This document shows positions 30,274-49,419 of a stretch of DNA of 49,419 bases, one piece after another. The position numbers and the translations under genes were made by a program. The stretch is taken from positions 124,001 through 173,419 of the forward strand of contig MFPR01000030.1 in the NCBI GenBank assembly GCA_001784175.1, written 5' to 3'. Source of the stretch: Candidatus Lindowbacteria bacterium RIFCSPLOWO2_12_FULL_62_27. GTDB taxonomy: Bacteria; Lindowbacteria; 2-12-FULL-62-27. Each line of letters begins with the position of its first letter. Position 1 is the stretch's first letter. The notes beneath the pieces were generated by a model. It made no database searches. It had not been told where the DNA came from and saw only the letters and a list, made by a program, of their open reading frames with translations.

Positions 30274-30483
30274 TCAATCGCCCTGTTGTGCGCGACGGAG
30301 TTGACGGTTATCCAATTCTTCGGAGATGAGCGCCTCATTTTCACCGAGGAAATCACGGATATCATCCACGTTGTCAAGAACAATCCTGGCGATGGCAGGC
30401 GTGATAATGCGGCTGATGTTCATGGTGCGGTCGAAGATGACGAGCGCCGGGACGCCGGCGTAGGTGGTGCTACGGGAAGCCAT
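30274..30483 (-). CDS. Small hypothetical protein
   Basis: RBS AAGGAG; overlaps upstream gene in a small-gene operon. Confidence 0.6.
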   Translation of the reverse strand: MASRSTTYAGVPALVIFDRTMNISRIITPAIARIVLDNVDDIRDFLGENEALISEELDNRQLRRAQQGD

Positions 30484-30718: not shown

Positions 30719-30731
30719 GATGTGCCTCCTT

Positions 30732-31016
30732 TCAATATTCGTCCGGCAGCATGGCGGTGAAGCCGCCGGTTTCGTTTTGGCCGAACCACGCACGGATTGA
30801 ACCCTCCGGCGCGTTGCGGTTGTGGCCGAGTTCCTCGGCGCGGCCGTCTTTGAAAAAACAGCAATACAAGTGGTCTTCACGGTCGAGACTGGCCTTGGCG
30901 GCGGCCTCGATCATGGCCGTGGCTTCGTCGTTGTGGGTTTCCAAGAGTTTGATGAAACCCGGCGTTACATGGGAAACGTAGAACATCGTCAGCGGGCGAG
31001 AAGTGGGGCTGGACAT
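30732..31016 (-). CDS. Small plasmid/ICE-type hypothetical protein
   Basis: HVTPG near the N-terminus and C-terminal TAMLPDEY, a pattern I associate with plasmid-related small proteins. Confidence 0.65.
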   Translation of the reverse strand: MSSPTSRPLTMFYVSHVTPGFIKLLETHNDEATAMIEAAAKASLDREDHLYCCFFKDGRAEELGHNRNAPEGSIRAWFGQNETGGFTAMLPDEY

Positions 31017-31158
31017 GGGGATGCACCTGCCTTTGTGAGATCCCCTTCGCTACCGTGTGTTGTGCTCACCATCCATGGTTGCGCGCGACACAGCTCCGGG
31101 GATTATCCATCCGTGGATAAAGATGCGGCCGTCTCCGCAACGCAGAGACAGCCATGAA

Positions 31159-31335
31159 TTACGCGAGCGGGTTGTCGTGGATTTGGGCGGCGGGACCTTT
31201 GAGACGGCGGATCACCTCCAGACCGCCTTTTTTATAGACGGTCAGTGTCACGAGGTTCCCATCCGGATCGTAGACTGCCCAAAATCGGTCGTACTTTTCG
31301 AGGATAAAGTCTCGCGTGGCGATTGCTGTGCTCAT
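31159..31335 (-). CDS. 58-aa hypothetical protein (below ORF-track cut-off)
   Basis: Hand translation MSTAIATRDFILEKYDRFWAVYDPDGNLVTLTVYKKGGLEVIRRLKGPAAQIHDNPLA; ATGA overlap with the nuclease stop. Confidence 0.65.
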   Translation of the reverse strand: MSTAIATRDFILEKYDRFWAVYDPDGNLVTLTVYKKGGLEVIRRLKGPAAQIHDNPLA

Positions 31336-32111
31336 TCTGAATCACCCCCGTTCTCCGTGTAGTTGGGCAGCGTGCCGCCAAGGCAGAGCCGTCGAAATTC
31401 ACACCAGCCGCAGGCCGGCGTGACGTTGCGGGGAAAGATGCCGGCGCTGACGGCTTTGCCGACCTGGTTGATCGTCGCGATCAGGTGGTCGAAATGCTCC
31501 TTTGTTCGGATCGTGCGAAGTTCCATGAGCTGGCCTTTCGGGAACTTCTTGGTCGGCTTCACGATCACGCGGTAGATGACCTCGATCGGGCCGGGGAGTT
31601 TTTTCTCGAAGGCCAGCCCGAAGGCATATACGCTCGGCTGGATCTGCAGGTCCGCTTGGGGCTGGGACCACGCACGTTTGGAGGTCTTTATCTCGAGGAC
31701 GGTCTTGCCTTCGACCATCGCGTCAACCGTGCCGGTCAGGATCACGTTGTTGCCGTCGATCTGGAAGGGCGTTTCGACGGCGGTGATTTTGAGCGGGACG
31801 GCCTGCTCGTGATAGGTCGTGACAAGCGTTCGGACCAGGTCGTTGATTTCGGCAGGTAACAGCGCGTTGTCATATTCGTTGCTGGTTGCGGCGTCGACCG
31901 AGAGAGAGGCTTCGGTCAGGGCGTCCTGCAGGGATTTGCCGATGTGGATGGCCTCGACGCCGGCGTGGGTGGCGGTGCCGACGATGAAAAACGTCTGGTT
32001 CGGCGTTGGCACCTGGTCGATGTAGCGCAGGCGAAATTTGTGCGGGCAGGATAGGTAGGCGGTTATCTTGCTCGCGGAAAGATAGACCTTGCCATTGTTC
32101 AAGTCGATCAC
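31332..32111 (-). CDS. PD-(D/E)xK exonuclease, RecB/Cas4-like with Fe-S cysteines
   Basis: LSASKI..Y..CP, GTATH, E, LTGTVD, EIKT, Q.SVY, CGWCEFRRLC. Confidence 0.85.
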   Translation of the reverse strand: MIDLNNGKVYLSASKITAYLSCPHKFRLRYIDQVPTPNQTFFIVGTATHAGVEAIHIGKSLQDALTEASLSVDAATSNEYDNALLPAEINDLVRTLVTTYHEQAVPLKITAVETPFQIDGNNVILTGTVDAMVEGKTVLEIKTSKRAWSQPQADLQIQPSVYAFGLAFEKKLPGPIEVIYRVIVKPTKKFPKGQLMELRTIRTKEHFDHLIATINQVGKAVSAGIFPRNVTPACGWCEFRRLCLGGTLPNYTENGGDSE

Positions 32112-34140: not shown

Positions 34141-35046
34141 GTGCGGTACTTTCCTATTCATGTGGTTCGGCGCACGCAAACAATCGCGGTCTCAATTCTG
34201 TCATTCCTGTTTCTTCTTGGTATTTCTGTTTATGAAGCTGATGCGGGGTTGAGAAAACGCGTTCTCATCTCCGTCCACGCCCCCGACGCCGTTACCCGGG
34301 ACATCGTTGCCGGCGCCCTCGCGCGGGAGCTTGATCGGTACCGCGACATCCTCGTCATCGACGAGCGGTTCGAGCAGACGTTTCTTCCATATATGAAATA
34401 CAAAAGCCACGTGATCGTTCAGGTCGATGTGCTTCAGATGTATGCGTCCGAATCGGTCGATCATTCATGGAAAAAATGGAAAAAAGTCCCCGCGCTGGCG
34501 GCCGCCACGGTGATGTACCCCGTGATGGCCATTTCCCTGATCGCGCTTCCATCAGTCAGATCCGATGAATACGCTACCGTCCACACTGACGGCTATTTTT
34601 TGGCCAATGTCGCCCTCTTCGATATGACAACCGAACGATCCTTCGCCCGCACCCAGACCGGATTGTCGTTCCAGTTGGGCGTTCCGCAGGTTGGCAAAAA
34701 AGTCGACTACTCCGATCTCATCCTGACAAATGTCTCGGATAACAAGTTTCGATCTCTGGCGAAATGGATCGTCCGGGAAACTCACCGGCGGCCGGGCCAG
34801 ACATGGGTCTTCGGCCAGTCCTCCGAGCGCGCGTTCGTCAACGCCGGAAGCCTCGACGGAATCAAACCCGGCAAAAAACTCAAAATATACCGGCCCTGCG
34901 ACATCCATGCGCCCGGTACGGCAAACGTCGTAGTCCGGGCCGCCGAATATGCCGGGACCGTCAGGATCGTCCACGTGGACGAACTGTTTTCCATCGCAGA
35001 GCCGATCGGATTCTCCCTTTCGGGAGAATACATCACCAAAGAGTGA
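34141..35046 (+). CDS. Exported protein with FlgT C-terminal-like domain
   Basis: Signal peptide; AFVNAGSLDGIKPGKKLKIYR...AGTVRIVHVDELFSIA. Confidence 0.6.
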   Translation: MRYFPIHVVRRTQTIAVSILSFLFLLGISVYEADAGLRKRVLISVHAPDAVTRDIVAGALARELDRYRDILVIDERFEQTFLPYMKYKSHVIVQVDVLQMYASESVDHSWKKWKKVPALAAATVMYPVMAISLIALPSVRSDEYATVHTDGYFLANVALFDMTTERSFARTQTGLSFQLGVPQVGKKVDYSDLILTNVSDNKFRSLAKWIVRETHRRPGQTWVFGQSSERAFVNAGSLDGIKPGKKLKIYRPCDIHAPGTANVVVRAAEYAGTVRIVHVDELFSIAEPIGFSLSGEYITKE

Positions 35047-35056
35047 GGTGATTTGA

Positions 35057-35689
35057 GTGAACGCGAAACCCGTTTTTTCAATCCTTGCCGTCATCTTGGC
35101 GTTTGTCGTATCGACAGGGTGCGATGACCGGCCGAACACCAGGGTAAAAACGAATCCGAACGAGAAGGTCATTTACAACTCGTATGACGCCCGCCATCCG
35201 GAAAACCGGCCGGACTGGACATTGATCGATCGTCCCGCCGAACACGGCGCCTTTTTCTATTTCACCGGCGTCTCAGATCGGTTCACGACAGAGCTTGACG
35301 CCCGCGATCACGCCCTCTTCATGGCCCGCAAGGAAATCGCCGATCGAGTTCTAAACCTTGTCGAAACGTCCCGCAAGGAATCCCGCGACCGCGCAGGTTC
35401 TGCCGGCGACGGATCCGACATCCAGGTCGGGAGCAAGAGCCGGGTGGACGCCATCGCCCGTGTCGCCGTCTCGCAGGTACAACCCAAGGAGTGGTTTCTT
35501 CGGAAAATCCAGGCCGAAAGCGGCAAAGTCTACTGGGAAGCCATGGTCCTTGCCGAAATTCCCAGGGATGCGATCCAGCGCGAAATCAACCGCGTCTCCC
35601 GCGCCCTGAACGCCCTTGAGAAGGACGACAAAACGTTCCCGCTCAAAAGCACTCGGCTAACGGCCGGCAAATTGGACGAGGTGGAATAA
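35057..35689 (+). CDS. LPP20-like lipoprotein
   Basis: Lipobox STGC; RPDW, FYFTGVS, ARDHALFMARKEIA. Confidence 0.65.
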   Translation: MNAKPVFSILAVILAFVVSTGCDDRPNTRVKTNPNEKVIYNSYDARHPENRPDWTLIDRPAEHGAFFYFTGVSDRFTTELDARDHALFMARKEIADRVLNLVETSRKESRDRAGSAGDGSDIQVGSKSRVDAIARVAVSQVQPKEWFLRKIQAESGKVYWEAMVLAEIPRDAIQREINRVSRALNALEKDDKTFPLKSTRLTAGKLDEVE

Positions 35690-36583
35690 GTGATCTCCAC
35701 GCTTGCGGCGTTGATCCTGGCCTGTTCGGCGGCCTTTGAAGCCAATGCCGGGATGATCGAACCGTCGCCGGCCCCAAGACCCGCGTGGATCGATGCCGCG
35801 CCCATGCCCACGGCCGAATATCAATTCTTTGTCGGCCAGTCGGAACCCATGTTATCCGAGATCGAAGCCCGGACGGCCGCGGCGCGGAATGCCGTCCATC
35901 AGATTGCCGATTACGTCGGCGTCCAGATCAACCTCGTCACCAGAGAAACAAGAAACAGAAATTCGCCGGCGGAAATCGGACATGTGCACGTCGAAGGCGC
36001 CAGTGTCGCGGTCACGCTCTCGGACGCGTTCATCAGCAAGCTCAGATACCGCAATTGGCGTTCGGAACAGGCCAGGGACGAAAAAAGCGGACGGACGGTC
36101 TGGACCGCGTGGGTCCTGACGGAAGTCCCACGCGCCGAATTGGAGCGCGCCATTCAAACGATCCAGGCCCGCCGGGAACACGCCCGGTCACGCTTTGGCC
36201 TATACGGAAATGGCGCCATCGTCTATCAGGCGGATCCGTCCATGCCGTACTTCACGGCTGTCCGGAACCACCTGGAGCGCCATCTGTCGAAATTCGAGAT
36301 CGTGATTTTAAGCCGCCAACCCGATTCAGGCCCGGCCATCCCCGTTCTGAACGTGTCCGGACGAGTCACTGTCGAGAAGACGATCTACGACAATCAATTC
36401 ATCGCCGCTCAGCTCGTTCTGCGAATCCAGCACAATCTGCCCGACGGGACAACCGTGACGGATCACGTCATCTCCGGAACGCGGCGCGCTTACGCGAATA
36501 CGATCGAAACCGCCCTTGAAACGGCGATTGACTTGTTTCTGCAGGATTTCGGCCCCGAACTCCTGTCAGCCATTCGGGGATAA
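35690..36583 (+). CDS. LPP20-like exported protein
   Basis: Signal peptide; RPAWI, FFVGQS, ARTAAARNAVHQIA, paralogous to the upstream gene. Confidence 0.6.
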   Translation: MISTLAALILACSAAFEANAGMIEPSPAPRPAWIDAAPMPTAEYQFFVGQSEPMLSEIEARTAAARNAVHQIADYVGVQINLVTRETRNRNSPAEIGHVHVEGASVAVTLSDAFISKLRYRNWRSEQARDEKSGRTVWTAWVLTEVPRAELERAIQTIQARREHARSRFGLYGNGAIVYQADPSMPYFTAVRNHLERHLSKFEIVILSRQPDSGPAIPVLNVSGRVTVEKTIYDNQFIAAQLVLRIQHNLPDGTTVTDHVISGTRRAYANTIETALETAIDLFLQDFGPELLSAIRG

Positions 36584-36916: not shown

Positions 36917-37285
36917 ATGTTAGTACTAGCGTTCAAGATTATGGTAGGGATTTTCATGTTCAGAGTATTGTTGTCGTTTGTTCAAGCCATGAATAAGAAG
37001 CCCGAAACCATGAGCGCAGAATTGCCGTGTATGATTGAGATAGGCAAGTTTGGTGCTGATGAAGTAGATTTTAAAGGTTTGGAAAAAGGTGTAGGGAAAA
37101 TCGCCAGTCTTCGAGTATTGAAGAACCGTATTAAGGAACTTCAAATTCAGATCACTAAAGTGGAGAATTCTGGAGTACGTTTCAAGCTGGAGAAGATATT
37201 AGAGAGGTACGTTCAGGAACAGAAGAGAATCCGGCGAGAGGTACTTACAGAAGAGTATATCTACTGGGAAGAGCTTCAAAAGTAA
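36917..37285 (+). CDS. Hypothetical protein, N-terminal TM and coiled coil (AT-rich)
   Basis: RBS GAGGAGG; codon composition differs from neighbours. Confidence 0.6.
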   Translation: MLVLAFKIMVGIFMFRVLLSFVQAMNKKPETMSAELPCMIEIGKFGADEVDFKGLEKGVGKIASLRVLKNRIKELQIQITKVENSGVRFKLEKILERYVQEQKRIRREVLTEEYIYWEELQK

Positions 37286-37332: not shown

Positions 37333-37587
37333 ATGAGCACGATCTCCCCGGACGACGCACGTGATCTGCTGAAAGTTCTGATCATGAATCTGCCGAAGCG
37401 CCACAGACAAATCATCTATTTGATCGATTACGAAAAACTGACCCATGCCGATGTCGCGGATGTCCTGAACTTGGACGATGGCCACAAACCCTTGATGAGC
37501 GCACAGCGTGTCGAACGGATTTACGATAGAATCCGCGTCCGCCTCCAAAGGCGGATGGAGAACGAGGGGTATTACGGGTTTTTATGA
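37333..37587 (+). CDS. Stand-alone sigma70 region 4-like HTH protein
   Basis: LPKRHRQIIYL.DYEKLTHADVADVLNL...SAQRVERI..RIRVRL. Confidence 0.7.
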   Translation: MSTISPDDARDLLKVLIMNLPKRHRQIIYLIDYEKLTHADVADVLNLDDGHKPLMSAQRVERIYDRIRVRLQRRMENEGYYGFL

Positions 37588-37667
37588 CGTTGGAGACTGC
37601 AACGGAAAAATCTCGGTATCGTCCTGACGTTGTCCGCTGACCGCCGTTCATGCTATGAATAATCGTC

Positions 37668-38996
37668 ATGGCTCGAAACGCGTCTGGAGGAAATTCGCCT
37701 GACCCCAAGGGGTTTGTGGTTCCGCATCTCATCGATTGGCTGAAAAAATGCAAACAGGGTCCGCTACGGCCGCCAGAAATGCCCAACGATGTAAAGGCGG
37801 AACTTCTTAATTGGGTTATCCAGCGTCTAAGATCGGCGATCTATCATTCTACCGGCGAATCCCATCCGCCGCGGCCTACGACTGAATCGAAAGTTGAGAA
37901 ACCGGAGACTCGCCATCCGATCAACATCTTTGACCACATCACTGACACCGATCCGGGACTCCCAGCGAAGCAACTGACGGCGGCTGAAAAAGGGGAATTT
38001 TATGCCCGATTTTATCAATCCTTCTACGAAAACGTCGCGTGGGTGTTTTTCGAGGAGAAAATCCTGCCGACCGAGGAGGACATACAGCAGGGTCTGCCCC
38101 TGAATGAATCCTTTTTGAAACAGGCGCTGGGCGCCAAAATAATCGGCGACGCGGCGCTTCATGCAAGCCTCAATCAGCGTGTCAACTGGTGGATTCTTGA
38201 CCAATGCCGTAAACGAAACAAGGAATCAGATTACGGCCTGCTCGGTCTAAAGATCGACGACATCCTCAAACATGGGGAACAGCATTTTTTGAATGTGCAG
38301 GATTCGGACAACTGGCGAGCCGGTCTTTGGATCCTCATGGGGTTGCCGAAAGAAGCGCAGGCAGATATGAACCGCATCGGCGAATTCCAGGGCCGCTGCC
38401 GAACGATCGCCGCTGTGGCCTGCGAGTATGATGAGGACAACAATAACCTGAGCATCAAATCCCGTGTAATCAAACCGCTTCTCATTCAAATTTTTCAGGC
38501 GGTTGGCGAGCCAATGTCGGTCGATGAACTGCGGCAAATCGTTGCGGGCAAAATGAGCATTTCAAAGATGGATGGGGAACTCAGTCTCGACGTGACCAAC
38601 AAGGACGGGGATCCGTGTTTGGTTCCGGAAAGCGATCTGCAAGCCGATGCGCCGCCGGCGGACGAATTTGCGGTTGAGCCGTGCGCGGCCGAATTCATCC
38701 GTCTGACAGGTCTTGATCAGGATCTCGGATTTTATCTGGCAGCCCTCCGTGAGTATCGCGCCGGCGCCTTCACCTCCGCGCGTCTGGCGCCGATACTGAC
38801 CCGCACGTTGAACGTCTCGCTTACTACTGTCTACAATAAAATCAAGCGCGTCGACAGTCTATTTGATTTTTTTAAAGGCAATGACAACCCGAATCGGAAT
38901 TTATTCGCGGACGAGTTGATCCGCTGGCTTGAAAAGTGCGCCGATTCCGCGTTCAACAAGAAAGCGAGGGTGGTTGGGAATAAATCAAATGCGTAA
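37668..38996 (+). CDS. Divergent ECF-like sigma factor with large insertion
   Basis: Sigma2-like VNWWILDQCRKR, LSLD linker, C-terminal HTH (TSARLAPIL..TLNVSLTTVYNKIKRV). Confidence 0.55.
   Translation: MARNASGGNSPDPKGFVVPHLIDWLKKCKQGPLRPPEMPNDVKAELLNWVIQRLRSAIYHSTGESHPPRPTTESKVEKPETRHPINIFDHITDTDPGLPAKQLTAAEKGEFYARFYQSFYENVAWVFFEEKILPTEEDIQQGLPLNESFLKQALGAKIIGDAALHASLNQRVNWWILDQCRKRNKESDYGLLGLKIDDILKHGEQHFLNVQDSDNWRAGLWILMGLPKEAQADMNRIGEFQGRCRTIAAVACEYDEDNNNLSIKSRVIKPLLIQIFQAVGEPMSVDELRQIVAGKMSISKMDGELSLDVTNKDGDPCLVPESDLQADAPPADEFAVEPCAAEFIRLTGLDQDLGFYLAALREYRAGAFTSARLAPILTRTLNVSLTTVYNKIKRVDSLFDFFKGNDNPNRNLFADELIRWLEKCADSAFNKKARVVGNKSNA
38929..38955 (+). promoter_or_regulatory. ECF-like promoter motif copy 2 (inside the 3' end of the sigma-like gene)
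   Basis: TTGAAAA-N14-CGTTCA, 33 nt before ATG 38989. Confidence 0.45.
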
Positions 38997-40218
38997 GGAC
39001 GTGGTCAGTATGTTATTGGATGAAGACGCCCGGCCGGGCTTTCGGGCCGGCCAAATCTGGGCATTAACGGAGGCTGCCGGATTGCCGAATCCTGTCGTGT
39101 GTCTGCTCGGCAAGTCTGAAAGTGGGAGCTGGTCGGTCTTGAACGTCGCAGACAGGGACGTGTTACGAATGGCGTCGGACCGCGACCTCGTCCTGACGCC
39201 GGACGAATCGGGTTTGTCGTTCACGGCGATGATGGAAACCTGGAACCGCGCGGAAATTCCGCAATCGTTTTTGTCCCATTGCATGGGTACCGTTTCCGAC
39301 ACCATATTATTTACGCTCAAAAAAATGGCCAATCTCCCCTCCGATGCCGTCTACTCCGGCTCGCCAGTCGGTCGTGTCGGCCCGCCGATCCGCTATCCCG
39401 GCGACCCGAGAATCGAATTTCAGAAAAAGGAACGGTTATTCCCTCAGCAGGATCAGGTGCTGGAACTTGCAGCGACAACAGATTCGCCGGCCGTCATGGA
39501 AATATCCAGGGAGGAGTCCGATGAAATCAGCCGGAAGGTCGGCGGCGGCATTCTGACGTCAGTCTTCGAATTTATCAGCGACCTTCTTTGCACGCCGGCT
39601 GTCCAGCCGTTCCCTGTATATCAGGAATACAGTGTAGCGGCGGCGACCCGACCCGAACGGAGAGTCAGAGGGATTGACCATCGCATGGTGTCGGACGACC
39701 ATGAGCTTGCGATCGGTCTTGTCCTGTGGGACGACGGGGGTCTTTCCGTCATCGTTTCCGGTAAGGATGTTGACTTTGACAGAGCCGAGTTCTTCAGCGA
39801 ACGCGAGACCATCAAATGGTCGTTCAAATATGAGGGAGAATCCGCAGCCATGTATGACTTTTCCTCGGCTCTGCTTCGCGCCACAGGCAAGTTCCATATC
39901 GCGCTTCAGGTCGCCGGAGGCAAAATCACAGTCGACTGCCGACCGGCAGATGGAGGAAAAGAATGCAAAGTCCCCGCTGAACCGGTCTTGGTGTTTGAGG
40001 GGTTTCTCACGAAGTTCCGAAAATCCGGTAGCGATCTTGCCGCCGTAATAGGCATGATCGAGAAGGAAACTGATCCCGTTCTGCATTTTTTCATGGAGCA
40101 GATGCTGCTTAACGTCCTCAACAGCGCCGCCGACAAATCCATTTACAGGTCGTATGCCGGCGAACTCAAAAGGTCAACCACGAGGTTGGCGACATGGGTG
40201 GAAACCCATCTTGGCTGA
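38989..40218 (+). CDS. Putative anti-sigma factor with N-terminal PemK/MazF-like fold (CalpT-like)
   Basis: FRAGQIW..VVCLL..V..V.D...ASDRDLVL..METWN..L..CMGTV; GPPI...DPR..FQ..E; internal ELAA and VAAA motifs; overlaps the sigma-like gene. Confidence 0.5.
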   Translation: MRKDVVSMLLDEDARPGFRAGQIWALTEAAGLPNPVVCLLGKSESGSWSVLNVADRDVLRMASDRDLVLTPDESGLSFTAMMETWNRAEIPQSFLSHCMGTVSDTILFTLKKMANLPSDAVYSGSPVGRVGPPIRYPGDPRIEFQKKERLFPQQDQVLELAATTDSPAVMEISREESDEISRKVGGGILTSVFEFISDLLCTPAVQPFPVYQEYSVAAATRPERRVRGIDHRMVSDDHELAIGLVLWDDGGLSVIVSGKDVDFDRAEFFSERETIKWSFKYEGESAAMYDFSSALLRATGKFHIALQVAGGKITVDCRPADGGKECKVPAEPVLVFEGFLTKFRKSGSDLAAVIGMIEKETDPVLHFFMEQMLLNVLNSAADKSIYRSYAGELKRSTTRLATWVETHLG

Positions 40219-40261
40219 TGAGTTTGACGGGGGCGTGCCGTTGGAGGCGCTTCAGAAGACG

Positions 40262-40858
40262 ATGAAGTCAATCGCCGTTGTGGGCGAGATTGGCATCCTC
40301 ACCGTCGATGCCGACAACGATATGCACGTGTATTACCTCGTCTATGACCCCGGCGGCGAAAGTTGCACGCGATGGGAGAATGAATGTCTGACAGTCTTTC
40401 CGGACATCCGCACCCATTTTAGGCGCGTATCATGGCCTAGGCGTGACAGCCATTTCGTCAACATATCCCAGAAGAATTTCTATCTCCGTGATTTTCACAC
40501 GAAAAACACGCAAGTGGCGTCATGTAAGAGCCGTTCAATAGCGCTCGGCGTTGCGCTCTGTGCCTTGTCTGTTGATTTCGATATCCAAATGAACAAGGTC
40601 GCTTGCACGGGTGATTTGAACATCGACGGTGACATCGGCCCCGCGCCGGACGTCGCCAATAAGCTCCGGGATTTCGGGTATTCGAGATCGTTCGAGATGA
40701 TTCTCATGCCCGCACAGCATAAGAATCACGTGGAACGGATGGACTTCAGCAATGAGATTGCGGCCAAAATTTATTTCGTTTCCAATCTTCAGGAGGGTCT
40801 GGTCGCCGTCCATCAGAAGGTCAAGCCGAAACATTACCTGGGAATAGCCAAGCCGTGA
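40262..40858 (+). CDS. Stand-alone Lon-type (S16) serine protease domain
   Basis: SRSIALGVAL...VACTGDLNIDGDIGP...ANKL...ILMP: Ser and Lys 42 residues apart. Start uncertain (ATG 40262 aligns with the paralog; TTG 40211 possible). Confidence 0.7.
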   Translation: MKSIAVVGEIGILTVDADNDMHVYYLVYDPGGESCTRWENECLTVFPDIRTHFRRVSWPRRDSHFVNISQKNFYLRDFHTKNTQVASCKSRSIALGVALCALSVDFDIQMNKVACTGDLNIDGDIGPAPDVANKLRDFGYSRSFEMILMPAQHKNHVERMDFSNEIAAKIYFVSNLQEGLVAVHQKVKPKHYLGIAKP

Positions 40859-42201
40859 CAACCGGCCAGATCGGCATCCTGGCGTTGGACAAGGATGACA
40901 CGGTGTCAGTGCTTATGCTGGCCTACAATCCCGATGGAGACAGCAGTACGAAGTGGGAGTCCGACAACCATGGCGCGTTTGACGACGTGCGTAAGGCCCT
41001 TTCGGGTTCCTCCCGATCTACCGGGATGCGGGTGAAGATCACACGCGAGCACTTCTATCTACAAGATTTCTGTAGCCGTCAGACTCGAGCGCTGGCCTGT
41101 AGAGGCCGGTCGTTCGCCCTCGGCCTTGGTCTGTGCGCGCGGGCCGTTCAACTTGGAGTGGACATGTCACGCGTCATCTGCACGGGCAACGTGAACGCCG
41201 ACGGCAATGTTCTGAGAGTCGACGGCCTTGAAAGCAAGTTGCGTTCATTTGGTCTGCATGATTCGTTCGACATGGTGTTGGTCCCAGCCGAACAGAAACC
41301 TGAGACTGAGGATTTGGTCCGAAGGAATGGCATTACGGAGGCGCTTTTTAACAAGATCAAGTATGTCAATACCCTTGGCGAAGCATTCGCCGAATGCGGG
41401 CTTCCGACTCCCACCACACGATCTCCACGGGTTCTGGCGACATTGCTGGTGACGATCATTCTGTCTTTGTTCTTGGCCACCGCACTTTACAGGTGGTTTC
41501 AACACAACAAGCGAGGGAGCGCTAATGAAATCCGCTCGGTGCAAAAAACCAGTGATACGTCGGCACGGGCATCTACCGAGTCAAATTGGTTAAAGCCGGC
41601 ATCAACAAAATTAATTGATCTTGGAAACATACCTGAATTTGCCGGTCAGCAGATAACGCCTGAACCACTCAATCTAAAAGATGGAAAAGTCATTGAATGG
41701 CGTGAACAGAAAATGTCCTTTACTCTACCAAAAACTTGGGAACAAGTACTTTTTGCTGACGATGAGATGCGCTGGGAAGACAGACGTGCACCCGTCATCG
41801 GGAGCGGCGACGGCATATATTTACAGGTTGTTACTCACAGAGGTGAAATTGACATACAAAAACATATTGGAGTAAAAGCAAAAGAACTCTTCGAACAATT
41901 TCTTAACGGTGATATACGGAGTTACACGCTACTTCCCATAGATGGTGTTGTAGGGATTTTATGGATAGACCCCAACATATCAGACGGCACCCCGATATAT
42001 TTATCAACCGACACTTACAATTATGGATCGGTGAGTTTGTATGACCACGAATACTGTTCAATATATTGGGTAGGTGTTAAACCTTTTCAAGGCGGCGCGA
42101 GAACTATGGCGATAACATGTCAGGCTGTTTACACCAGATATCCGCTTGCTTCGCCGACTCTATTGGCTATCATTCGATCTGTAAAATTTCAGTCTAAGTG
42201 A
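40855..42201 (+). CDS. Lon-type protease domain + TM + extracytoplasmic PsbP-like domain
   Basis: GRSFALGLGL...ICTGNVNADGNVLRVDGLESKL...VLVP (Ser-Lys spacing 42); TM VLATLLVTIILSLFLATAL; MSFTLPKTW ... IIRSVKF. Confidence 0.75.
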   Translation: MTTGQIGILALDKDDTVSVLMLAYNPDGDSSTKWESDNHGAFDDVRKALSGSSRSTGMRVKITREHFYLQDFCSRQTRALACRGRSFALGLGLCARAVQLGVDMSRVICTGNVNADGNVLRVDGLESKLRSFGLHDSFDMVLVPAEQKPETEDLVRRNGITEALFNKIKYVNTLGEAFAECGLPTPTTRSPRVLATLLVTIILSLFLATALYRWFQHNKRGSANEIRSVQKTSDTSARASTESNWLKPASTKLIDLGNIPEFAGQQITPEPLNLKDGKVIEWREQKMSFTLPKTWEQVLFADDEMRWEDRRAPVIGSGDGIYLQVVTHRGEIDIQKHIGVKAKELFEQFLNGDIRSYTLLPIDGVVGILWIDPNISDGTPIYLSTDTYNYGSVSLYDHEYCSIYWVGVKPFQGGARTMAITCQAVYTRYPLASPTLLAIIRSVKFQSK

Positions 42202-42263
42202 ATGCTCATGGGAATTCTCTTTTTAACCTGACGTGGGGTGTGAATAAAAATAGGGAGAGTTCA

Positions 42264-42893
42264 TTGAACCTCGACGCGAACCTTCGAACGTATCTTGACG
42301 GCCGCAAGCCCGACGCGCGGTACGCATCGTTCGACTACTGCTTCAATTACTTCCAGTCGTTTCGCGACGGAAACATCAGCACGTTGTGTAGTCCGGCCAA
42401 CGTACAGCTAAGCTGCCTTCAGCTCGGTTTCTATCTCGCGAGTTGGGGCATGCTCCGGGGCTCCGCCGAGTTGTTGCAAAAGAGTGCCATGCATCTCATT
42501 CCCGTCATAGAGGTAATCGCACGTACTGACGCGTCCTTGTGGGAACTTGATGCCCACTGCTACACCGAAACCAACATTCACCGCCTCTTGGATGTGGCGA
42601 GCCATTTACGCCAAGCTAATTCTGGGATGTCCGACATTCTCGTCACGAAGATCATGCTCGGGGTGTTCGGCAATGTTCCCGCCTTTGACACGAATTTCAA
42701 GAGAGGCTGCCAAGTCGCCACGTTCGGCCCCAAGGCCTTGAGGAAGATCGGCGCCTTTTATCAAGATCATTCTGCGATCATCGACGCATTTCGGGTGCCG
42801 ACGCTCGACTTCGTAAACGGTGTCCCCACTCAGCGCAAGTACACTCGCGCGAAGGTCATCGACATGGCCTTTTTTATAGAGGGTATGGCGTGA
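42264..42893 (+). CDS. Hypothetical protein, possibly HhH-glycosylase-like
   Basis: RYASFDYCFNYF, LGFYLASWGMLRGS, LVTKIMLGVFGNVPAFD; TTG start after AGGGAG. Confidence 0.6.
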   Translation: MNLDANLRTYLDGRKPDARYASFDYCFNYFQSFRDGNISTLCSPANVQLSCLQLGFYLASWGMLRGSAELLQKSAMHLIPVIEVIARTDASLWELDAHCYTETNIHRLLDVASHLRQANSGMSDILVTKIMLGVFGNVPAFDTNFKRGCQVATFGPKALRKIGAFYQDHSAIIDAFRVPTLDFVNGVPTQRKYTRAKVIDMAFFIEGMA

Positions 42894-42959: not shown

Positions 42960-43089
42960 TGACAAAGTTCGTCAAGCAGGGGATGCTCGACCTTCACAGA
43001 AGTCAATCCTTTTTTAGACTTAGCTATCGGAGATTCGCCGAAGGTAATGTGGGTGGCTCCCACATCGAAAAGGCATGGAGGTGATAGTC

Positions 43090-43266
43090 ATGGGACAAAC
43101 TTGCGGCGATTGCCACGGAAACGGCCGGTGCAGTCACTGTCACGGATCAGGTAAGCAAGACTATCCAGGATACGGAACACCAAGCGACAACCCCTGTTCG
43201 TGGTGTCGGGGATCTGGAGTTTGCCAAATTTGCCAGGGGAAAGGTGGGTGGAATTTTCCACGGTGA
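43090..43266 (+). CDS. Small DnaJ-type CxxCxGxG zinc-finger protein
   Basis: Four CxxCxGxG repeats; RBS GGAGGTG before ATG 43090. Confidence 0.75.
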   Translation: MGQTCGDCHGNGRCSHCHGSGKQDYPGYGTPSDNPCSWCRGSGVCQICQGKGGWNFPR

Positions 43267-45109: not shown

Positions 45110-45285
45110 TCCATATCAGGGAGGTGAGAAAATGAAACATCTGGCTCACATTCAAACAGGGGGAGGCCTCCCTACGACTACCTGAAGAGAAGCCCGACGC
45201 GCTGGGTCCAACCCGGCTTCGTGGATTGCACGCCCGGCTTTGTCCGGTCGTGTCAATAAAGGACGCTTTCGAAAAGGAGGAGAAA

Positions 45286-46440
45286 ATGGACACATCACGC
45301 CGTGGGTTTTTCCAACTCTGCGCATACTATGCCTCATTGACTGCAATTCCCTCGGTCCTGCCGTCAGTAGAGGAACTTCGGAGATGCGGGACCATCGCGA
45401 AGGCGATATCAACTCCGCCGCTTGAACTGCCGGAGGAAATCGAGATGCGCATCGGCCTGAAATTAATTCCTCTGCTACACTCGCCTGACGGAAAGGATGT
45501 CGGCGAGGGCATGGCCAGAACGCGCCGTGTGATTTTTTGCGACTACGGGCTGATCGTGCCGCCAGTTCGAATTCGCGATCAACGCACTATCGATGATAAC
45601 GGGTATCTCTTCCTAATCCGGGGCAACATCGTTGCCGCCGGCAGCGTACATACGGACAAACAGCTTGTGCTGAATTACGACGAAAAGGCCGGTGGACTGC
45701 CGGGGGTTGTGCCCACCCCGCATGAATGTCCGTCCCTGCGTCCGTGCATTTGGACTGACGGCGGTTCCGCAGCCTTTGCAAAAAACCGCGGTTATACCGT
45801 GGTTGACGCCGTCACCGTGATCGTACACCATTTTTACGATGTCATTCTTCGGAACGCCGCAGACCTTCTGACGAGACAAGCAACCGTCAACTTGCTTGAG
45901 ACTGTTCGATCCACTAACCCCTCGCTGGCCGAGAGCGCGACAGAACGAATCGGCATCGGGCGTATCCAGAGGATTTTGCAAACGCTTTTGCGCGAGCGTC
46001 AGTCGATCCGGGATATAGTTGCCATTTTGGAGGCGTTGACAGGTGACTTGTGCGGAAGTGCGGATTTCGAACAGCAGGTCAATGTCGTTCGCTCGGCCCT
46101 TGATAATCGCAATTTGCCGTTGCTTCATGTTGTGATTACGGACACCGACATTCAACCTGATTATTTCGTCGGTCTCTCTTATTATCCTCAATTATACCCT
46201 GCCCCCCTTGTCGCTCTTAGCGGACAGGGCGAACGGGCGCGCGAATATTTTGAGCAAGTGCGATCCAAACACTTTGTCCATCCCGACGCAAAATTGGCTG
46301 AAACATTGTACCGAAACTGCCGCCGTTGCGACGAAATCAGCCCAAAATTTTATGACCCCGTGGCGGCGGCGCTGGCCTCCTCCTACCGGCAGACTGAACG
46401 ATCTCCCTGGTTATGGACTTTTCATACAGATGTGGTGTGA
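45286..46440 (+). CDS. FlhA C-terminal (FHIPEP) domain fused to FlhB C-terminal-like domain, no TM bundle
   Basis: IGLKLIPLL..GLIVPPVRIRD..GYTVVDAVTVI.HH..LLTRQ..LLRERQSIRD..ILEAL..VRSAL, then VVIT..YFVGLSY..APLVALSG..LAETLY..EI...YDPVAAAL; RBS AAGGAGG; N-terminal SRRGFF. Confidence 0.75.
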   Translation: MDTSRRGFFQLCAYYASLTAIPSVLPSVEELRRCGTIAKAISTPPLELPEEIEMRIGLKLIPLLHSPDGKDVGEGMARTRRVIFCDYGLIVPPVRIRDQRTIDDNGYLFLIRGNIVAAGSVHTDKQLVLNYDEKAGGLPGVVPTPHECPSLRPCIWTDGGSAAFAKNRGYTVVDAVTVIVHHFYDVILRNAADLLTRQATVNLLETVRSTNPSLAESATERIGIGRIQRILQTLLRERQSIRDIVAILEALTGDLCGSADFEQQVNVVRSALDNRNLPLLHVVITDTDIQPDYFVGLSYYPQLYPAPLVALSGQGERAREYFEQVRSKHFVHPDAKLAETLYRNCRRCDEISPKFYDPVAAALASSYRQTERSPWLWTFHTDVV

Positions 46441-46654
46441 CAGGCAGGTGGATGAGCGAGGTGAAGTGGCCGAGCGTGTTGGATAGATATCTTTTCCGGC
46501 GCGACGTGCTCAAGCTCGCCGGATCTGGATTGGGGACGGAGGGTGACATATTGTGCGTCCACGAAAGGCACGTGAATCCAGCGGGTAAGAGTCCCGGTGG
46601 CAGTCGGCGAGTTGGTTATTTCCGGCGTGATTTCCAGAATCCCCCCGTTTAAAT

Positions 46655-47095
46655 ATGAAGATGGACAAATCAAAACTTCAGAAAATCGGAGCCAAAATAC
46701 CGAGGGACAAGCTCGCGCTTTGCAGAGTGCCGTGGTGGATCGATCCGGAAGGCGCGGCTGTCCGATTGCCCGAGCCGGGGCACGCGGCGTCGGCCATCGA
46801 GATGCTCAGGAAACGGGGCATCGAGGCCGGACCGGACAAGGCGGTGGGGGCGATGATTGGCGAGGGCTGGATCCGGGTTCAGGTTTATCCCGACGACACC
46901 GCCTTCATTCAAGGCACGTTCGAGTCCATTTTGAAACGCGGCCGAACTATTTTGAAAATAGTTCCGAATCTGAAATCCGTGGAACTATCCTTCGTTCCGG
47001 CCGGAGACGATGCGCCGCCCACCTTGGGCGCGGAGGAAATCAACCGCACGGGCTGGGAGGAATCCGTCCGGCGCGCCAGGCTGGCCGGGTCCTGA
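46655..47095 (+). CDS. Hypothetical protein
   Basis: Natural-looking composition (PWWIDPEG...GWIRV); CGTTTA just upstream. Confidence 0.55.
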   Translation: MKMDKSKLQKIGAKIPRDKLALCRVPWWIDPEGAAVRLPEPGHAASAIEMLRKRGIEAGPDKAVGAMIGEGWIRVQVYPDDTAFIQGTFESILKRGRTILKIVPNLKSVELSFVPAGDDAPPTLGAEEINRTGWEESVRRARLAGS

Positions 47096-47139
47096 GGGAA
47101 GGCCAACGCAGAGGCGGGCATAAAAACTTTCTCCATTTT

Positions 47140-47166
47140 CTAAAAAATCCCCGTTACCACCGTTTA
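47140..47166 (+). promoter_or_regulatory. ECF-like promoter motif copy 5
   Basis: CTAAAAA-N14-CGTTTA followed by CATATCAGGGAGG. Confidence 0.6.
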
Positions 47167-47220
47167 TACATATCAGGGAGGCGAAGAGGCTTCCTGAAAA
47201 ATGTATGGAGGAGGCGGAGG

Positions 47221-48105
47221 GTGGTGACTGAAACTCAAAAAGCTGTATGCAAATCGAAATGGCAGTTACGGCCCAACAATCAATACGTTCCATGCCGGTC
47301 AACGGAATCCCGCCTGCCTACGGGCATATATTCCGTGTGGGTCGATTTTCCAAATATGGAAACCCTTTTCAGGCGCATCGAGCAGAAGACCGACAATTTG
47401 ATCGACAGCCGGGAGCCGATCGCCCAAAAGGTCATGGAGGAAATGAAACAGTTCTGGGACGTTTCCGACCAATATAGAAAATTCGGCTACCTTCACAAGA
47501 GGGGGTATCTCTTTTATGGCCCTCACGGGAGCGGCAAGACATCCATCGTCCAGCAGATTGTCCAATTTGTCATTCAAAACGACGGCGTGATTTTCACCGT
47601 CGACGACCCGCACGCCCTGATCTGGGGACTGAGAGAATACAGGTCCATAGAGCCGGACCGGAAGACGGTCTGTATCTTTGAGGACATCGATACGATCGTG
47701 GAAAAAAGAGAAAAAGAGGGCGCACTTCTCCAGCTGATCGACGGCGAAACCCAGATCGACAACATTCTGTATCTTGCCACCACAAATTACCCCGAAAAAT
47801 TGGACAAACGGATTCTCTCGCGGCCCCGGCGTTTCGATCGGGTCCTGAAAGTCGAGATGCCGTCCGCGGTGACTCGCCAGGCCTATTTTGACGCCAAACT
47901 GACTCCGACCAACGGAACGAACATTGATGAATGGGTGGAAGCCACGGAGGGGTTCTCCTTTGGTGCCATGGCGGAACTGGTGATCAATGTCAAGTGTCTG
48001 GGCATTCCGTATGAAATTGCGATCGCCGATCTCAAACATCGTCAGGAGAAGAAACCCTCCAGTGACGAATTTTCACGAGGATGCCTTGGCTTCCGGGACA
48101 GATAA
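47221..48105 (+). CDS. AAA+ ATPase (classical clade, single domain)
   Basis: YLFYGPHGSGKT, CIFEDID, ATTNYPEKLD.RI..RPRRFD; GTG start after GGAGG. Confidence 0.9.
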   Translation: MVTETQKAVCKSKWQLRPNNQYVPCRSTESRLPTGIYSVWVDFPNMETLFRRIEQKTDNLIDSREPIAQKVMEEMKQFWDVSDQYRKFGYLHKRGYLFYGPHGSGKTSIVQQIVQFVIQNDGVIFTVDDPHALIWGLREYRSIEPDRKTVCIFEDIDTIVEKREKEGALLQLIDGETQIDNILYLATTNYPEKLDKRILSRPRRFDRVLKVEMPSAVTRQAYFDAKLTPTNGTNIDEWVEATEGFSFGAMAELVINVKCLGIPYEIAIADLKHRQEKKPSSDEFSRGCLGFRDR

Positions 48106-48307
48106 GGCCGTCGTCGTGATCGACGGCAAGAAATACTGGGCGCATGTGGTTGAAACGGCCAAATTTATCCGACAAATGCAGAAAGAGGCCAAAACTCAGG
48201 GTGAGAAGGACAGGGTTACCGCCTGGATCAAGCGGGGCTGTGCGATGTTTGAATCACTTGAGGAAGTCATGTCCTACGGCGACCGCCTAGACGATCTACA
48301 CTTGTGA
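48062..48307 (+). CDS. Small hypothetical protein
   Basis: Open frame overlapping the ATPase end; start uncertain. Confidence 0.35.
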   Translation: MTNFHEDALASGTDKAVVVIDGKKYWAHVVETAKFIRQMQKEAKTQGEKDRVTAWIKRGCAMFESLEEVMSYGDRLDDLHL

Positions 48308-48354
48308 CGCTTCCACACAAAATTTCAAACGTGGTCATACCGCTCAACGGCTGA

Positions 48355-49419
48355 CTACGCGGCGAGCCACTCCATGTAACGGCGTTGGCGAAGGAATCGC
48401 ACAACCGGAGTCAGGTCGAAGTGGCCATATTTCAATTCACGGGCTGGATCCGCGTCGACTTGAAACTCGTGGGGGTCGATGCTCTCCCCTCTGGCAACGG
48501 CCGGGAACGGCGAAGGCTCGCCAGCGCCGGGCATCAAATCAGGATAGGGCGCGCAAATTTCATCCTCTGTCAATCGCTGTACGCTCGGCATGTCGGCCGG
48601 ATCGGGAAACATCGACGCGGACGCGCGGCAATCCGGCGGGACGTAATGCGTCATCGGGTCGTAGTGCCACTGCATCCGCGCGGCGCGGGATCTGTCCTCG
48701 GGCGTCTCGTGTTTGGGGTCGGCGTGATTACGAGCCGTCTGGCGAATGTCCAGCAGAACATCATGAAGGGTGCGGTCAATCCCCATCGCGTCAATCAGAA
48801 CCATGCGAGAGCCGAGGTCAACCGTTTTGCCGTTGGCCTTGCGAAGTCCCCCTTTGGCGCGAAGAACTGAATAGCGGCGCGTCTCAATGTCGAGCGTCCC
48901 GAACATCCGTTTGACTTTTGTCGTGACCAGCACGTCGGCCACGGTCAACGCGGTCTGGCCCTGTGAGAGATAGGCCAGGTCGTTCAAATTCGCAAGGCGG
49001 CGTTTGCCGTCAAGACCTCGTGAAAAGCTCTCGTCAATCAGAACGTGCGCGACCCTGTGGCCATCCTCCGTTTCGATCACGGGCAACAGGTGGAACGTCT
49101 GCGCGTCGATCGGGAGACCCGCGGCGCGGGCGGCGCGGATGGTGTAGGCCGTCCCCCGCGAGTGTCCGTCCCAGAAAGCAAGGAGCCGGTCCGCCGAGGC
49201 CACGATCTGATCGTCCCGAAGCAAAGCGGCGCGTTTGCCGTGGGCGTCCCAGTCCGGGCGAATGACACGCGACGGAATCCGGCGCCAGTGTGCCCACAAG
49301 TCGGCGAAGGTGTCAGGGCCGGCAGCCCCGCCGGAGATAACCTCTGTAATGGGCGTAACGCTGTGGATGGCGTCCAGAGCGGCGAAGACGACGGCGCGGT
49401 AATGATCGCCCGTCAAACA
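48355..49419 (-). CDS. SLOG-superfamily (DUF2493/YspA-like) domain fused to unknown C-terminal domain; 5' end probably outside window
   Basis: EVISGGAAGPD..A..WA, PDWDAHGKRAALLR, LLAFWDGHSRGTAYTI..A; frame open to the window edge. Confidence 0.75.
   Translation of the reverse strand, partial: CLTGDHYRAVVFAALDAIHSVTPITEVISGGAAGPDTFADLWAHWRRIPSRVIRPDWDAHGKRAALLRDDQIVASADRLLAFWDGHSRGTAYTIRAARAAGLPIDAQTFHLLPVIETEDGHRVAHVLIDESFSRGLDGKRRLANLNDLAYLSQGQTALTVADVLVTTKVKRMFGTLDIETRRYSVLRAKGGLRKANGKTVDLGSRMVLIDAMGIDRTLHDVLLDIRQTARNHADPKHETPEDRSRAARMQWHYDPMTHYVPPDCRASASMFPDPADMPSVQRLTEDEICAPYPDLMPGAGEPSPFPAVARGESIDPHEFQVDADPARELKYGHFDLTPVVRFLRQRRYMEWLAA

Follow-up and report, generated by a model that had tools for sequence, protein, structure and literature searches.

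A cassette of five co-directional plus-strand genes, here termed A to E (37668–42893, from the ORF list), encodes a sigma-like protein, a partner with a MazF-like domain and two ATPase-less Lon-type proteases, one of which continues into a membrane helix and an outer domain. We put at about even the chance that this cassette works as a transcription switch gated by proteolysis, restricted to one lineage and following the logic of CalpL–CalpT–CalpS, the type III CRISPR-associated set of a SAVED-Lon protease, a MazF-like anti-sigma factor plus a sigma factor of ECF-like type, but without CRISPR or a nucleotide sensor. The domain identities of A, B and the Lon proteins are supported at profile level only, the fold assignments being comparisons of shallow alignments (5–14 sequences) together with low-confidence ESM Atlas models (pLDDT 0.59 and 0.61).

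Gene layout of the cassette

The window, by which we mean the whole 49,419-nucleotide stretch analysed, comes from an uncultured groundwater bacterium in a family of Candidatus Lindowbacteria. Most of the cassette genes overlap (Table 1). Read from the sequence, A and B share 8 nt, and the C/D and D/E junctions are each 4-nt overlaps reading GTGA. The B/C junction depends on the start of C, with a 65-nt overlap from 40154 or a 43-nt gap from 40262. A GGAGG lies 15 nt upstream of the latter, and we consider 40262 the more likely start because the paralogues begin near it. The earlier note had described four adjacent same-strand genes with two of three junctions overlapping, and this holds (A/B and C/D). 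Gene E, a fifth coupled gene, lies beyond the range of that note. No promoter or terminator signals above chance were found by which the operon could be delimited.

E is an accessory of the window copy only and is missing from the relatives' cassettes. It has no family match in Pfam, PADLOC and further family libraries; homologues occur in two of 200 other genomes, one of them adjoining an HTH_3 and Peptidase_M78 pair. The only direct Pfam sigma match of the region falls in a separate 84-aa ORF upstream of A, unlisted in the earlier note, which carries sigma-70 region 4 only. No sigma-2 remnant lies upstream of this ORF in any frame, and no such ORF stands beside the other four cassettes. We regard it as a neighbour, whose position does not imply membership of the cassette.

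Table 1 Features of the cassette and its upstream neighbour (positions in the window)
Feature	Position	Strand	Details
84-aa ORF, sigma-70 region 4 only	37333–37587	+	Pfam Sigma70_r4 1.5e-7, r4_2 2.5e-6
A, sigma-like transcription-factor candidate	37668–38996	+	442 aa
A, weak sigma-2-like stretch	38016–38225	+	residues 117–186; hhalign E 0.0034
A, sigma-4/LuxR-type HTH	38682–38882	+	~residues 339–405; profile comparison
B, candidate anti-sigma factor and Lon substrate	38989–40218	+	409 aa from ATG; longest frame from 38929
B, MazF/PemK-like N-domain	39022–39339	+	residues 12–117; hhalign, ESM Atlas
B, Leu-Ala-Ala, candidate cleavage/degron site	39466–39474	+	residues 160–162; alignment
C, soluble ATPase-less Lon/S16 domain	40262 (or 40154)–40858	+	198 aa (234 aa from 40154)
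C, catalytic codons	Ser 40535–40537, Lys 40661–40663	+	alignment
D, Lon/S16 domain protein	40855–42201	+	448 aa; Lon/S16 domain at residues 1–185
D, catalytic codons	Ser 41110–41112, Lys 41236–41238	+	alignment
D, membrane helix	41419–41499	+	residues 189–215; Kyte-Doolittle mean 2.59
D, orphan outer domain	41500–42198	+	~230 residues; no family match
E, coupled downstream gene	42198–42893	+	231 aa

Conservation in the Lindowbacteria family

A gene-neighbourhood check, as the earlier note had suggested, showed that the order sigma-like, MazF-like, Lon recurs. It is present in five cassettes across all four genomes of the family, at 21–49% identity, with A and B overlapping or nearly abutting in every cassette. 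In one relative (G001), the N-domain and linker of B are joined in frame to Lon, giving a MazF-like::Lon fusion. The shared order, the start–stop overlaps and this fusion contradict the reading that the genes are chance neighbours or mis-called ORFs with no joint function. That reading draws on the missing family annotation of most cassette genes and on single-sequence searches that return almost nothing; we give it hardly any credence.

The C-terminal part of the Lon proteins varies between the cassettes. A membrane helix and outer domain occupy this position in the window copy; two cassettes have a TPR there together with a membrane hairpin at the C-terminus, one has DUF7664, and the remaining one carries no such module. 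The input from the envelope put forward in the earlier note is therefore plausible for the window copy, but does not extend to the relatives that bear TPR or DUF7664 modules instead.

Twin Lon proteases without an ATPase

C and D are paralogous (E 8.6e-34 to 7.8e-39, with 37–39% identity). All six aligned Lon-like domains share an invariant Arg-Ser pair and an invariant Lys. The spacing from Ser to Lys is 42 residues, and the two form the dyads S128/K170 in C and S86/K128 in D. Against the PDB, the six-sequence family profile reached 6.2e-8 at best; its Ser and Lys align with the Ser and Lys of Lon chain 1xhk, and 45 of the 48 PDB matches listed are named Lon, La or TTC1975. Single proteins gave fainter signals: C matched Pfam Lon_C at 0.059 and PADLOC BrxL at 3.6e-4, and D matched PADLOC CARF_LON (2.4e-4) and CRISPR-Lon (0.0046) through its Lon part only. 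Three of the six Lon-like domains touched PADLOC CRISPR-Lon models (best 0.0012). Unlike the ATP-dependent LonA and LonB proteases, C and D carry no N-terminal AAA+ module, with neither a match nor room for one in C (198–234 aa) or in D, which starts at the Lon domain. The pair of paralogous Lon/S16 domains without AAA+ claimed earlier is thus borne out by the family profile (6e-8) and by the dyad in every domain aligned.

BrxL of BREX systems offers a partial likeness, as it has an ATPase-less-looking Lon-like domain at its C-terminus. The BrxL Lon-like domain has been described as lacking the Ser-Lys dyad (PMC12839542). In the cassette Lons, by contrast, the dyad is invariant, and no BREX genes lie near the cassette.

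The second Lon is membrane-anchored, as had been proposed: D has one strongly hydrophobic segment, followed by an outer domain of ~233 residues. This domain has no family match and no relative in genomes G000–G003, and the whole of D recovers only itself among 5.8 billion proteins.

No CRISPR or SAVED among the scanned ORFs

The claim that the locus has no CRISPR or SAVED agrees with the ORFs scanned (10.9–49.4 kb of the window), among which no cas, SAVED or CARF families were found. Nor did any Cas10 in this genome pass its cut-off. In C and D, no Pfam match to SAVED appeared at E up to 1, and the PADLOC SAVED_LON models cover the Lon stretch only. PF18145 was found in none of the four family genomes, in a search whose control likewise matched nowhere. 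In G000, the Csm1 model gave only sub-threshold matches, at 23 bits where the cut-off is 170, and Cas10 is present in G002 on a contig other than that of its cassette.

A MazF-like partner with a conserved linker

B consists of a MazF/PemK-like N-domain, a conserved linker and a C-terminal domain of ~200 residues without known family. In hhalign, the N-domain matched a profile of 29 PemK proteins along 108 columns, nearly the full length of that profile, with probability 65–82 and E between 1.1e-5 and 6.1e-5. None of 60 shuffles attained this score, and cross-controls scored 11–14. Residues 16–120 also match a PemK_toxin cluster structurally in an ESM Atlas row (TM 0.75). The MazF-like fold that the earlier note had assigned to this protein is thus upheld at profile level and by the Atlas match. 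B has no Pfam, NCBIfam, PADLOC or PHROG match, and no chain in the PDB, not even CalpT, resembles it in sequence. DUF2080 (PF09853) is absent from B and from G000–G003, with one borderline match among 401 genomes.

A MazF-like domain could also point to a toxin–antitoxin or abortive-infection module, whereby the MazF-like domain of B would be an active RNase, silenced either by A or by the C-terminal part of B itself, and cleavage by Lon would free it and stop growth. The N-domain of B matches the profile of the MazF/PemK toxins of type II toxin–antitoxin systems over its full length, and RelE-like, AbiEi-like and PIN genes share an island with the window copy. The conserved Arg of the PemK Arg-Pro pair is needed for MazF catalysis. 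In the hhalign alignment, this column is Pro in the B of the window, and only one of the five B proteins, that of G003, retains Arg there; the Arg of G003 counts for the toxin reading, its absence from the other four against it. B further differs from MazF/PemK toxins in that it has no Pfam-level match, that its MazF-like domain is fused to a 290-residue extension, and that its linked genes encode Lon and an HTH protein in place of a small antitoxin. All five cassettes keep this HTH protein, A, and three of them lie beside ordinary-looking genes, with the other two among toxin–antitoxin or nuclease genes. We therefore consider a toxin module improbable.

The reading of B as an anti-sigma factor and Lon substrate draws attention to its linker. 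Four of the five B proteins have Leu-Ala-Ala at the linker position after the MazF-like domain; the B of G003 lacks it. The motif recalls CCaCalpT, for which a preprint reports that cleavage within 202-LAAA exposes an LAA degron (bioRxiv 10.1101/2024.05.08.593097). By analogy, we infer that the Leu-Ala-Ala site of B would be cut in the same way.

A long sigma-like factor

A alone gave a single Pfam match, HTH_22 at 0.082. A 14-sequence alignment of the A family compared with 13 ECF sigma factors (hhalign) matched sigma-4 with probability 82.6 and E 9.7e-6, and the C-terminal part alone with E 1.3e-6. The sigma-2 match is weak (E 0.0034, probability 9.6%), yet colinear with that of sigma-4; a second A subfamily gave E 5.5e-4 and probability 30% against sigma-2, over ECF positions 10–63. 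None of 60 shuffles attained the family score for sigma-4 or sigma-2. The subfamily of the window's A, taken alone, gave nothing significant against ECF sigma factors (sigma-4 E 0.059). It matched a distant subgroup carrying Pfam Sigma70_r4_2 with probability 98.9 and E 1e-17, and the distant relatives matched sigma-4 at E 8.8e-8. At the one locus of a distant relative that could be viewed, the neighbour is a membrane protein, neither B-like nor Lon-like.

Against the PDB, the best match of the A family profile was the LuxR-type HTH of RhlR (5.1e-5), ahead of FliA (3.1e-4), so the HTH of A is not distinguishable from the LuxR type. Hence A may be an ordinary LuxR/GerE-type repressor or activator and no sigma factor, with B and Lon controlling its stability or activity without RNA polymerase exchange. 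The low sigma-2 probability is in keeping with this, as are the length of A, more than twice that of the 13 aligned ECF sigma factors (149–215 aa), and the Pfam sigma-2 scan, negative for A itself and for all ten relatives scanned. The colinear sigma-2-like matches, which beat all 60 shuffles, and the ECF positions covered by the second subfamily argue for a sigma factor instead, as does the one of ten A relatives that passes the Pfam Sigma70_r4_2 cut-off. Moreover, the known MazF-fold partner CalpT holds a sigma factor (10.1101/2024.05.08.593097). On balance, we think an ordinary HTH regulator unlikely, if somewhat less so than a toxin module. Of the ECF-like sigma factor put forward in the earlier note, the sigma-4/LuxR-type HTH stands (E 1e-5 to 1e-6), while the ECF-like character is weakened by the faint sigma-2 match and the excess length.

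Proposed mechanism and known systems

If the cassette is a protease-gated switch, the MazF-fold N-domain of B would, at rest, bind the long sigma-like A and hold it inactive. A signal would then switch on one or both of the ATPase-less Ser-Lys proteases. In the window copy, the orphan C-terminal domain of D may sense a signal outside the cytoplasmic membrane, possibly in cooperation with C, the soluble paralogue. B would then be cut by the protease in its linker, past the MazF-like domain and probably within or close to the conserved Leu-Ala-Ala, and housekeeping proteases would clear the remnant of B. The freed A would alter transcription of a regulon, and the switch as a whole might serve phage defence or a general stress response.

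The cassette shares with CalpL–CalpT–CalpS an ATPase-less Ser-Lys Lon, a partner with a MazF-like N-domain and linker and a sigma-4-type HTH protein, all tightly linked. It differs in that neither SAVED nor DUF2080 was found, that no Cas10 in this genome passes its cut-off and that no CRISPR was found in the scanned part of the window. Where a sensor would sit on Lon, the cassettes have a membrane helix and outer domain, a TPR with membrane hairpin, or DUF7664. The Lon gene is doubled in the window, A has 442 residues with long insertions, and neither A nor B has detectable sequence similarity to the PDB chains of that system.

In the RseA/sigma-E pathway, the anti-sigma factor is a membrane protein, and the site-1 and site-2 proteases are DegS and RseP. 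As proposed, the cassette would resemble this pathway in that an envelope-side signal causes the anti-sigma factor to be cleaved and frees a sigma factor, and in that an exposed Ala-Ala-type C-terminus leads to removal by cytoplasmic proteases. Here, by contrast, it is the protease, of Lon type, that sits in the membrane, and the candidate anti-sigma factor is soluble and MazF-fold. RseA/sigma-E is named as regulated anti-sigma proteolysis in the preprint on CCaCalpT (10.1101/2024.05.08.593097). The proposed logic of a protease-released transcription factor is common to CalpL–CalpT–CalpS and the cassette.

Implications

Ecologically, the cassette carries little weight because it is very rare: we found five cassettes, all within a single candidate family, and a search of 1.84 billion representatives gave 11 A-like proteins. 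The MazF-like–Lon fusion of one relative and the twin Lons of the window provide direct experimental handles. A wider reading is possible, albeit rather doubtful: CalpL–CalpT–CalpS may be the CRISPR-tethered branch of an undescribed class in which sensor-swappable ATPase-less Lons cut a MazF-fold anti-sigma factor at a site of the LAA type, thereby releasing an atypical sigma factor of unusual length, with the membrane Lon and its soluble twin carrying an outside signal to transcription in the window copy. If true, this would be a new transmembrane signalling route, in which the protease is the sensor and not the anti-sigma factor. Should the mechanism hold, the logic of protease, MazF-fold anti-sigma factor and sigma factor would be portable rather than CRISPR-specific, wired to an outer domain, a TPR or DUF7664. 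Synthetic biology would gain protease-gated switches with exchangeable sensors, and the known routes from signal to RNA polymerase in bacteria would be widened.

Organization and genomic setting of the cassette

Five consecutive plus-strand genes in the window, A to E, comprise a sigma-like gene (A), a MazF-like partner (B), two Lon paralogues (C and D) and an accessory gene (E231). Genes A and B overlap by 8 nt, and C/D and D/E by 4 nt each, with GTGA at both of these junctions; B and C share 65 nt or are separated by a 43-nt gap, depending on the start chosen for C. These ORFs and junctions bear out the earlier note's description of adjacent, co-directional and overlapping genes, which ended one coupled gene (E) early.

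The window corresponds to G000:C30:124001-173419 in its own genome, and its G+C content drops from about 0.60 to 0.49–0.56 at ~28 kb onward. This low-G+C stretch carries toxin–antitoxin-type genes and a nuclease, and the five-gene cassette lies inside it. The start of the island spans 27735–32111, with no integrase among the ORFs scanned. Three successive genes between the nuclease and the cassette encode hydrophobic N-termini and have no Pfam, NCBIfam or PHROGs match. Downstream of the cassette are a CxxC-rich ORF (DUF7895, 5.8e-5) and genes for an AAA protein and a YspA/SLOG-type protein, company like that of a defence island.

Scanning the cassette region for sigma-70 promoters and terminators gave no more than chance. 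Ahead of gene A lies a 14-mer that also occurs upstream of the cassette in G001, another genome of the same family. We rejected it as a cassette-private promoter motif because it occurs, with at most one mismatch, in 17 copies across the four family genomes (G000–G003) versus 2 for the reversed control; it appears to be a motif that these genomes use generally.

Features of the window in and around the cassette (window coordinates)
Feature	Position	Strand	Length	Setting
HTH_3 gene and RelE-like gene	27.7–28.5 kb			low-G+C stretch
DUF6088/AbiEi-like gene	28775–29497			low-G+C stretch
Weak PIN gene	29727–30176			low-G+C stretch
PD-(D/E)XK nuclease	31332–32111			low-G+C stretch
Three successive genes	34141–36583	+	301, 210, 297 aa	
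p122	36917–37285		122 aa	upstream of A
p84	37333–37587	+	84 aa	upstream of A
14-mer	37601–37614			upstream of A
Gene A	37668–38996	+	442 aa	cassette
Gene B	38989–40218	+	409 aa	cassette
Gene C	40154 or 40262 to 40858	+	234 or 198 aa	cassette
Gene D	40855–42201	+	448 aa	cassette
Gene E	42198–42893	+	231 aa	cassette
CxxC-rich ORF (DUF7895)	43075–43266		63 aa	downstream
FHIPEP/Bac_export_2 protein	45226–46440	+		downstream
AAA protein and YspA/SLOG-type protein	46597–49416		502 aa (AAA)	downstream

Twin Lon domains and the predicted topology of D

Taken singly, C and D matched Lon models weakly (Pfam Lon_C, 0.059; PDB Lon chains, 0.26–1), with PADLOC matches to BrxL (3.6e-4), CARF_LON (2.4e-4) and CRISPR-Lon (0.0046). 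The two are paralogues, with 37–39% identity and E-values down to 7.8e-39. A six-sequence profile, comprising C, D and four related domains of the same bacterial family, was run against the PDB. Among the sequences listed, 45 of 48 were named Lon, La or TTC1975, with a best E of 6.2e-8. The Ser and Lys of the profile align with those of the Lon chain 1xhk; an Arg–Ser pair and the Lys occur without exception in the six domains, with a Ser–Lys spacing of 42 residues. Neither C nor D contains an AAA+ module. The profile match and the invariant dyad support, at profile level and from a shallow alignment, the twin Lon domains with a Ser–Lys dyad and no AAA+ module that had been proposed for this locus.

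D continues beyond its Lon domain into one strong hydrophobic helix (residues 189–215) and a 233-residue tail that has no family match and no relative in the sister genomes; a homologue search with D returned D alone. As no signal peptide precedes the Lon domain, we infer a cytoplasmic Lon part and a C-terminal tail beyond the membrane. Of the transmembrane helix and extracytoplasmic domain previously assigned to the second Lon, the helix is seen as this hydrophobic segment, and the location of the tail follows from the predicted topology.

Another locus, L012 7585–9449, contains a Lon-like copy in decay, with two TGA stops (8258–8647), which is oriented divergently to a genuine PemK_toxin gene (1e-8) and adjoins a RES-domain gene.

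A candidate MazF/PemK-like domain in protein B

B was named by none of the family libraries searched and matched no PDB chain. The ESM Atlas model of B itself (pLDDT 0.59) matched PemK_toxin clusters over residues 16–120, with a TM of 0.75 measured on a 115-aa PemK row. Using hhalign, we compared a five-sequence B alignment with 29 PemK proteins from the sampled genomes. Residues 12–117 of B paired with PemK columns 2–117 of 127 (probability 65–82%, E 1.1e-5 to 6.1e-5), scoring 35.7 versus 11.8 for the reversed template. None of 60 column shuffles reached this score (maximum 19.5), and the cross-controls, which paired B with sigma and A with PemK, scored 11–14. These two independent leads agree on a predicted MazF/PemK-like N-terminal domain, at profile level and from shallow alignments, and at that level the MazF fold claimed earlier for the product of the gene starting at 38989 holds.

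The conserved PemK Arg column is Pro in the window's B and is Arg only in the B of G003. The lack of this Arg in the window's B, together with the constant presence of A across cassettes, speaks against a module that releases a MazF toxin, which we regard as improbable beside a protease-gated release of A.

After the MazF-like domain, B has a conserved stretch followed by 'LAA' (residues 160–162), which is found in four of the five B proteins. Passages of a CalpL/T/S study describe CCaCalpT as a MazF-like domain plus DUF2080, which CalpL cuts inside 202-LAAA, exposing an LAA degron (bioRxiv 10.1101/2024.05.08.593097). The 'LAA' of B may be a suggestive parallel to that cut site. The C-terminal 200 residues of B are conserved within the bacterial family and contain no DUF2080; we rejected this domain as a dead Lon domain (hhalign E 0.36). 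Homologue searching with the B alignment was nearly empty, yielding two proteins.

Protein A and a neighbouring sigma-type ORF

PDB sequence searches with A returned nothing relevant, and Pfam gave a faint HTH (0.082). Searching 1.84 billion representatives exhaustively with an HMM identified 11 A-like proteins at E ≤ 1e-3, and a search with the A alignment two. Among ten relatives scanned, one exceeded the Pfam Sigma70_r4_2 cut-off (8.5e-6; 25.8 bits versus 25.7), one had Sigma70_r4 at 1.2e-3 and none had a sigma-2 match. Against the PDB, a 14-sequence A profile matched RhlR (5.1e-5), FliA (3.1e-4), SigF (2.5e-3) and an ECF sigma (0.025).

We then turned to hhalign with 13 ECF sigmas from the sampled genomes. 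Residues 339–405 of A aligned with sigma-4 (probability 82.6%, E 9.7e-6), and residues 117–186 aligned colinearly and weakly with ECF positions 42–89, the sigma-2 core (E 0.0034, probability 9.6%); none of 60 shuffles reached either score. The window's A subfamily alone gave no significant match to ECF sigmas (sigma-4 E 0.059). This subfamily is homologous to a distant subgroup over 323 columns (probability 98.9%, E 1e-17), and that subgroup matches sigma-4 at 8.8e-8; a second subfamily matches ECF positions 10–63 at 5.5e-4. At the level of these profiles, built on shallow alignments, a sigma-4/LuxR-type HTH in A is established and a sigma-2 domain is possible. The ECF-like sigma of the earlier note is half borne out, by a sigma-4/LuxR-type HTH; its sigma-2 part is a weak match, and A greatly exceeds the aligned ECF sigmas in size, which counts against it. 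Because sigma-4 and LuxR HTHs are indistinguishable in these comparisons, A may instead be a plain HTH regulator; we consider this unlikely, though less so than toxin release.

The sole direct Pfam sigma match in the region is p84, just upstream of the cassette, which matches sigma-70 region 4 only (1.5e-7) and has no counterpart at the other cassettes. It is preceded by p122, an AT-rich ORF with an N-terminal hydrophobic segment. A split sigma made of p122 and p84 was rejected, as no sigma-2 remnant lies upstream; p84 could be a remnant, or else a small regulator of HTH type.

Conservation of the cassette and variation of its modules

The comparison set was the three other genomes of the organism's family, further relatives sharing domain rank only. 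The gene-neighbourhood check proposed earlier found the A–B–Lon order in five cassettes across all four family genomes, with identities of 21–49%. Comparing the five shows that the Lon C-termini vary while the core is constant. Chance adjacency of the genes is contradicted by this synteny and by the B–Lon fusion in G001, and we give it hardly any weight.

Composition of the five A–B–Lon cassettes
Cassette	A	B	Lon
This window	present	present	twin genes C and D
G000:C41	present	present	Lon-TPR plus two hydrophobic segments at the C-terminus
G001:C84	present	limited to N-domain plus linker	in-frame fusion with B, followed by DUF7664
G002:C92	truncated at contig end	present	short Lon, then polytopic membrane protein gene
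G003:C133	present	present	Lon-TPR-hairpin

In the G001 fusion, Lon takes the place of the B C-terminal domain, which would be in keeping with that domain serving to dock B to the protease. DUF7664 forms the C-terminus of this MazF-like::Lon fusion (L013 5893–7452, in the G001 cassette locus) and the N-terminus of the next gene (L013 7449–9494; 41% identity, 94 residues), which continues into GIY-YIG and a DEAD-type helicase. DUF7664 could serve in homotypic coupling.

None of the other four cassettes contains E231, which has homologues in 2 of 200 other genomes and matched nothing in plasmids. One homologue, in an unrelated genome (L080 1390–2076, 34% identical), adjoins an HTH_3 and Peptidase_M78 (ImmR/ImmA-like) pair, another protease-and-regulator setting.

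The cassette may or may not serve phage defence: of the five, two lie among toxin–antitoxin or nuclease–helicase genes, and three have genes for aldo-keto reductase, pilus/response-regulator or RtcB proteins next to them. Two cassettes, in the window and at L013 1207–3147 (−), have within a few kb soluble proteins of odd architecture that combine FlhA-type (FHIPEP) and FlhB-type (Bac_export_2) cytoplasmic domains, in opposite order at the two loci (22% identity, E 2.7e-7).

A search for loci related to the cassette returned only two contigs already in the set and, in metagenomes, the window's own contig; one for loci related to the distant A group returned none. For distant A relatives a single locus was visible; there, the gene that follows encodes a protein whose C-terminus carries a membrane helix and which resembles neither B nor Lon. 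This neighbour is in keeping with a sigma/anti-sigma habit across the wider family and does not extend the link to Lon.

Relation to CalpL/T/S and proposed mechanism

The CRISPR and SAVED parts said earlier to be lacking were not found: the ORFs scanned at 10.9–49.4 kb of the window yielded no member of the SAVED, CARF, cas or cyclase families. A SAVED search gave no match in the four family genomes, though its control was equally silent. DUF2080 had no match in these genomes, and a DUF2080 search of 401 genomes for CalpT sequences gave one borderline match. The Csm1 model had only sub-threshold matches in the window's genome, and the Cas10 of G002 is on a different contig from its cassette. 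Lacking SAVED, DUF2080 and a CRISPR link, three of the features that define CalpL/T/S, the cassette is not a member of that system; the likeness lies in the proposed logic of a protease-released factor and is drawn from published descriptions of CalpL, CalpT and CalpS.

The titles, abstract openings and passages searched gave no account of Lon, a MazF-like partner and a sigma forming a cassette free of CRISPR. Passages of a survey (bioRxiv 10.1101/2025.11.14.688446) count CalpT among ten protease-associated modules and stress their wiring to many sensors, so that, on this account, the principle of sensor swapping is already known. Judging from sequence comparisons, we see about an even chance that the cassette mediates a CalpL/T/S-like, protease-gated release of the sigma-like factor A, in which other modules would replace the nucleotide sensor. 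In the window's copy, this module would be the outer domain on the membrane-anchored Lon (D), paired with its soluble twin (C).
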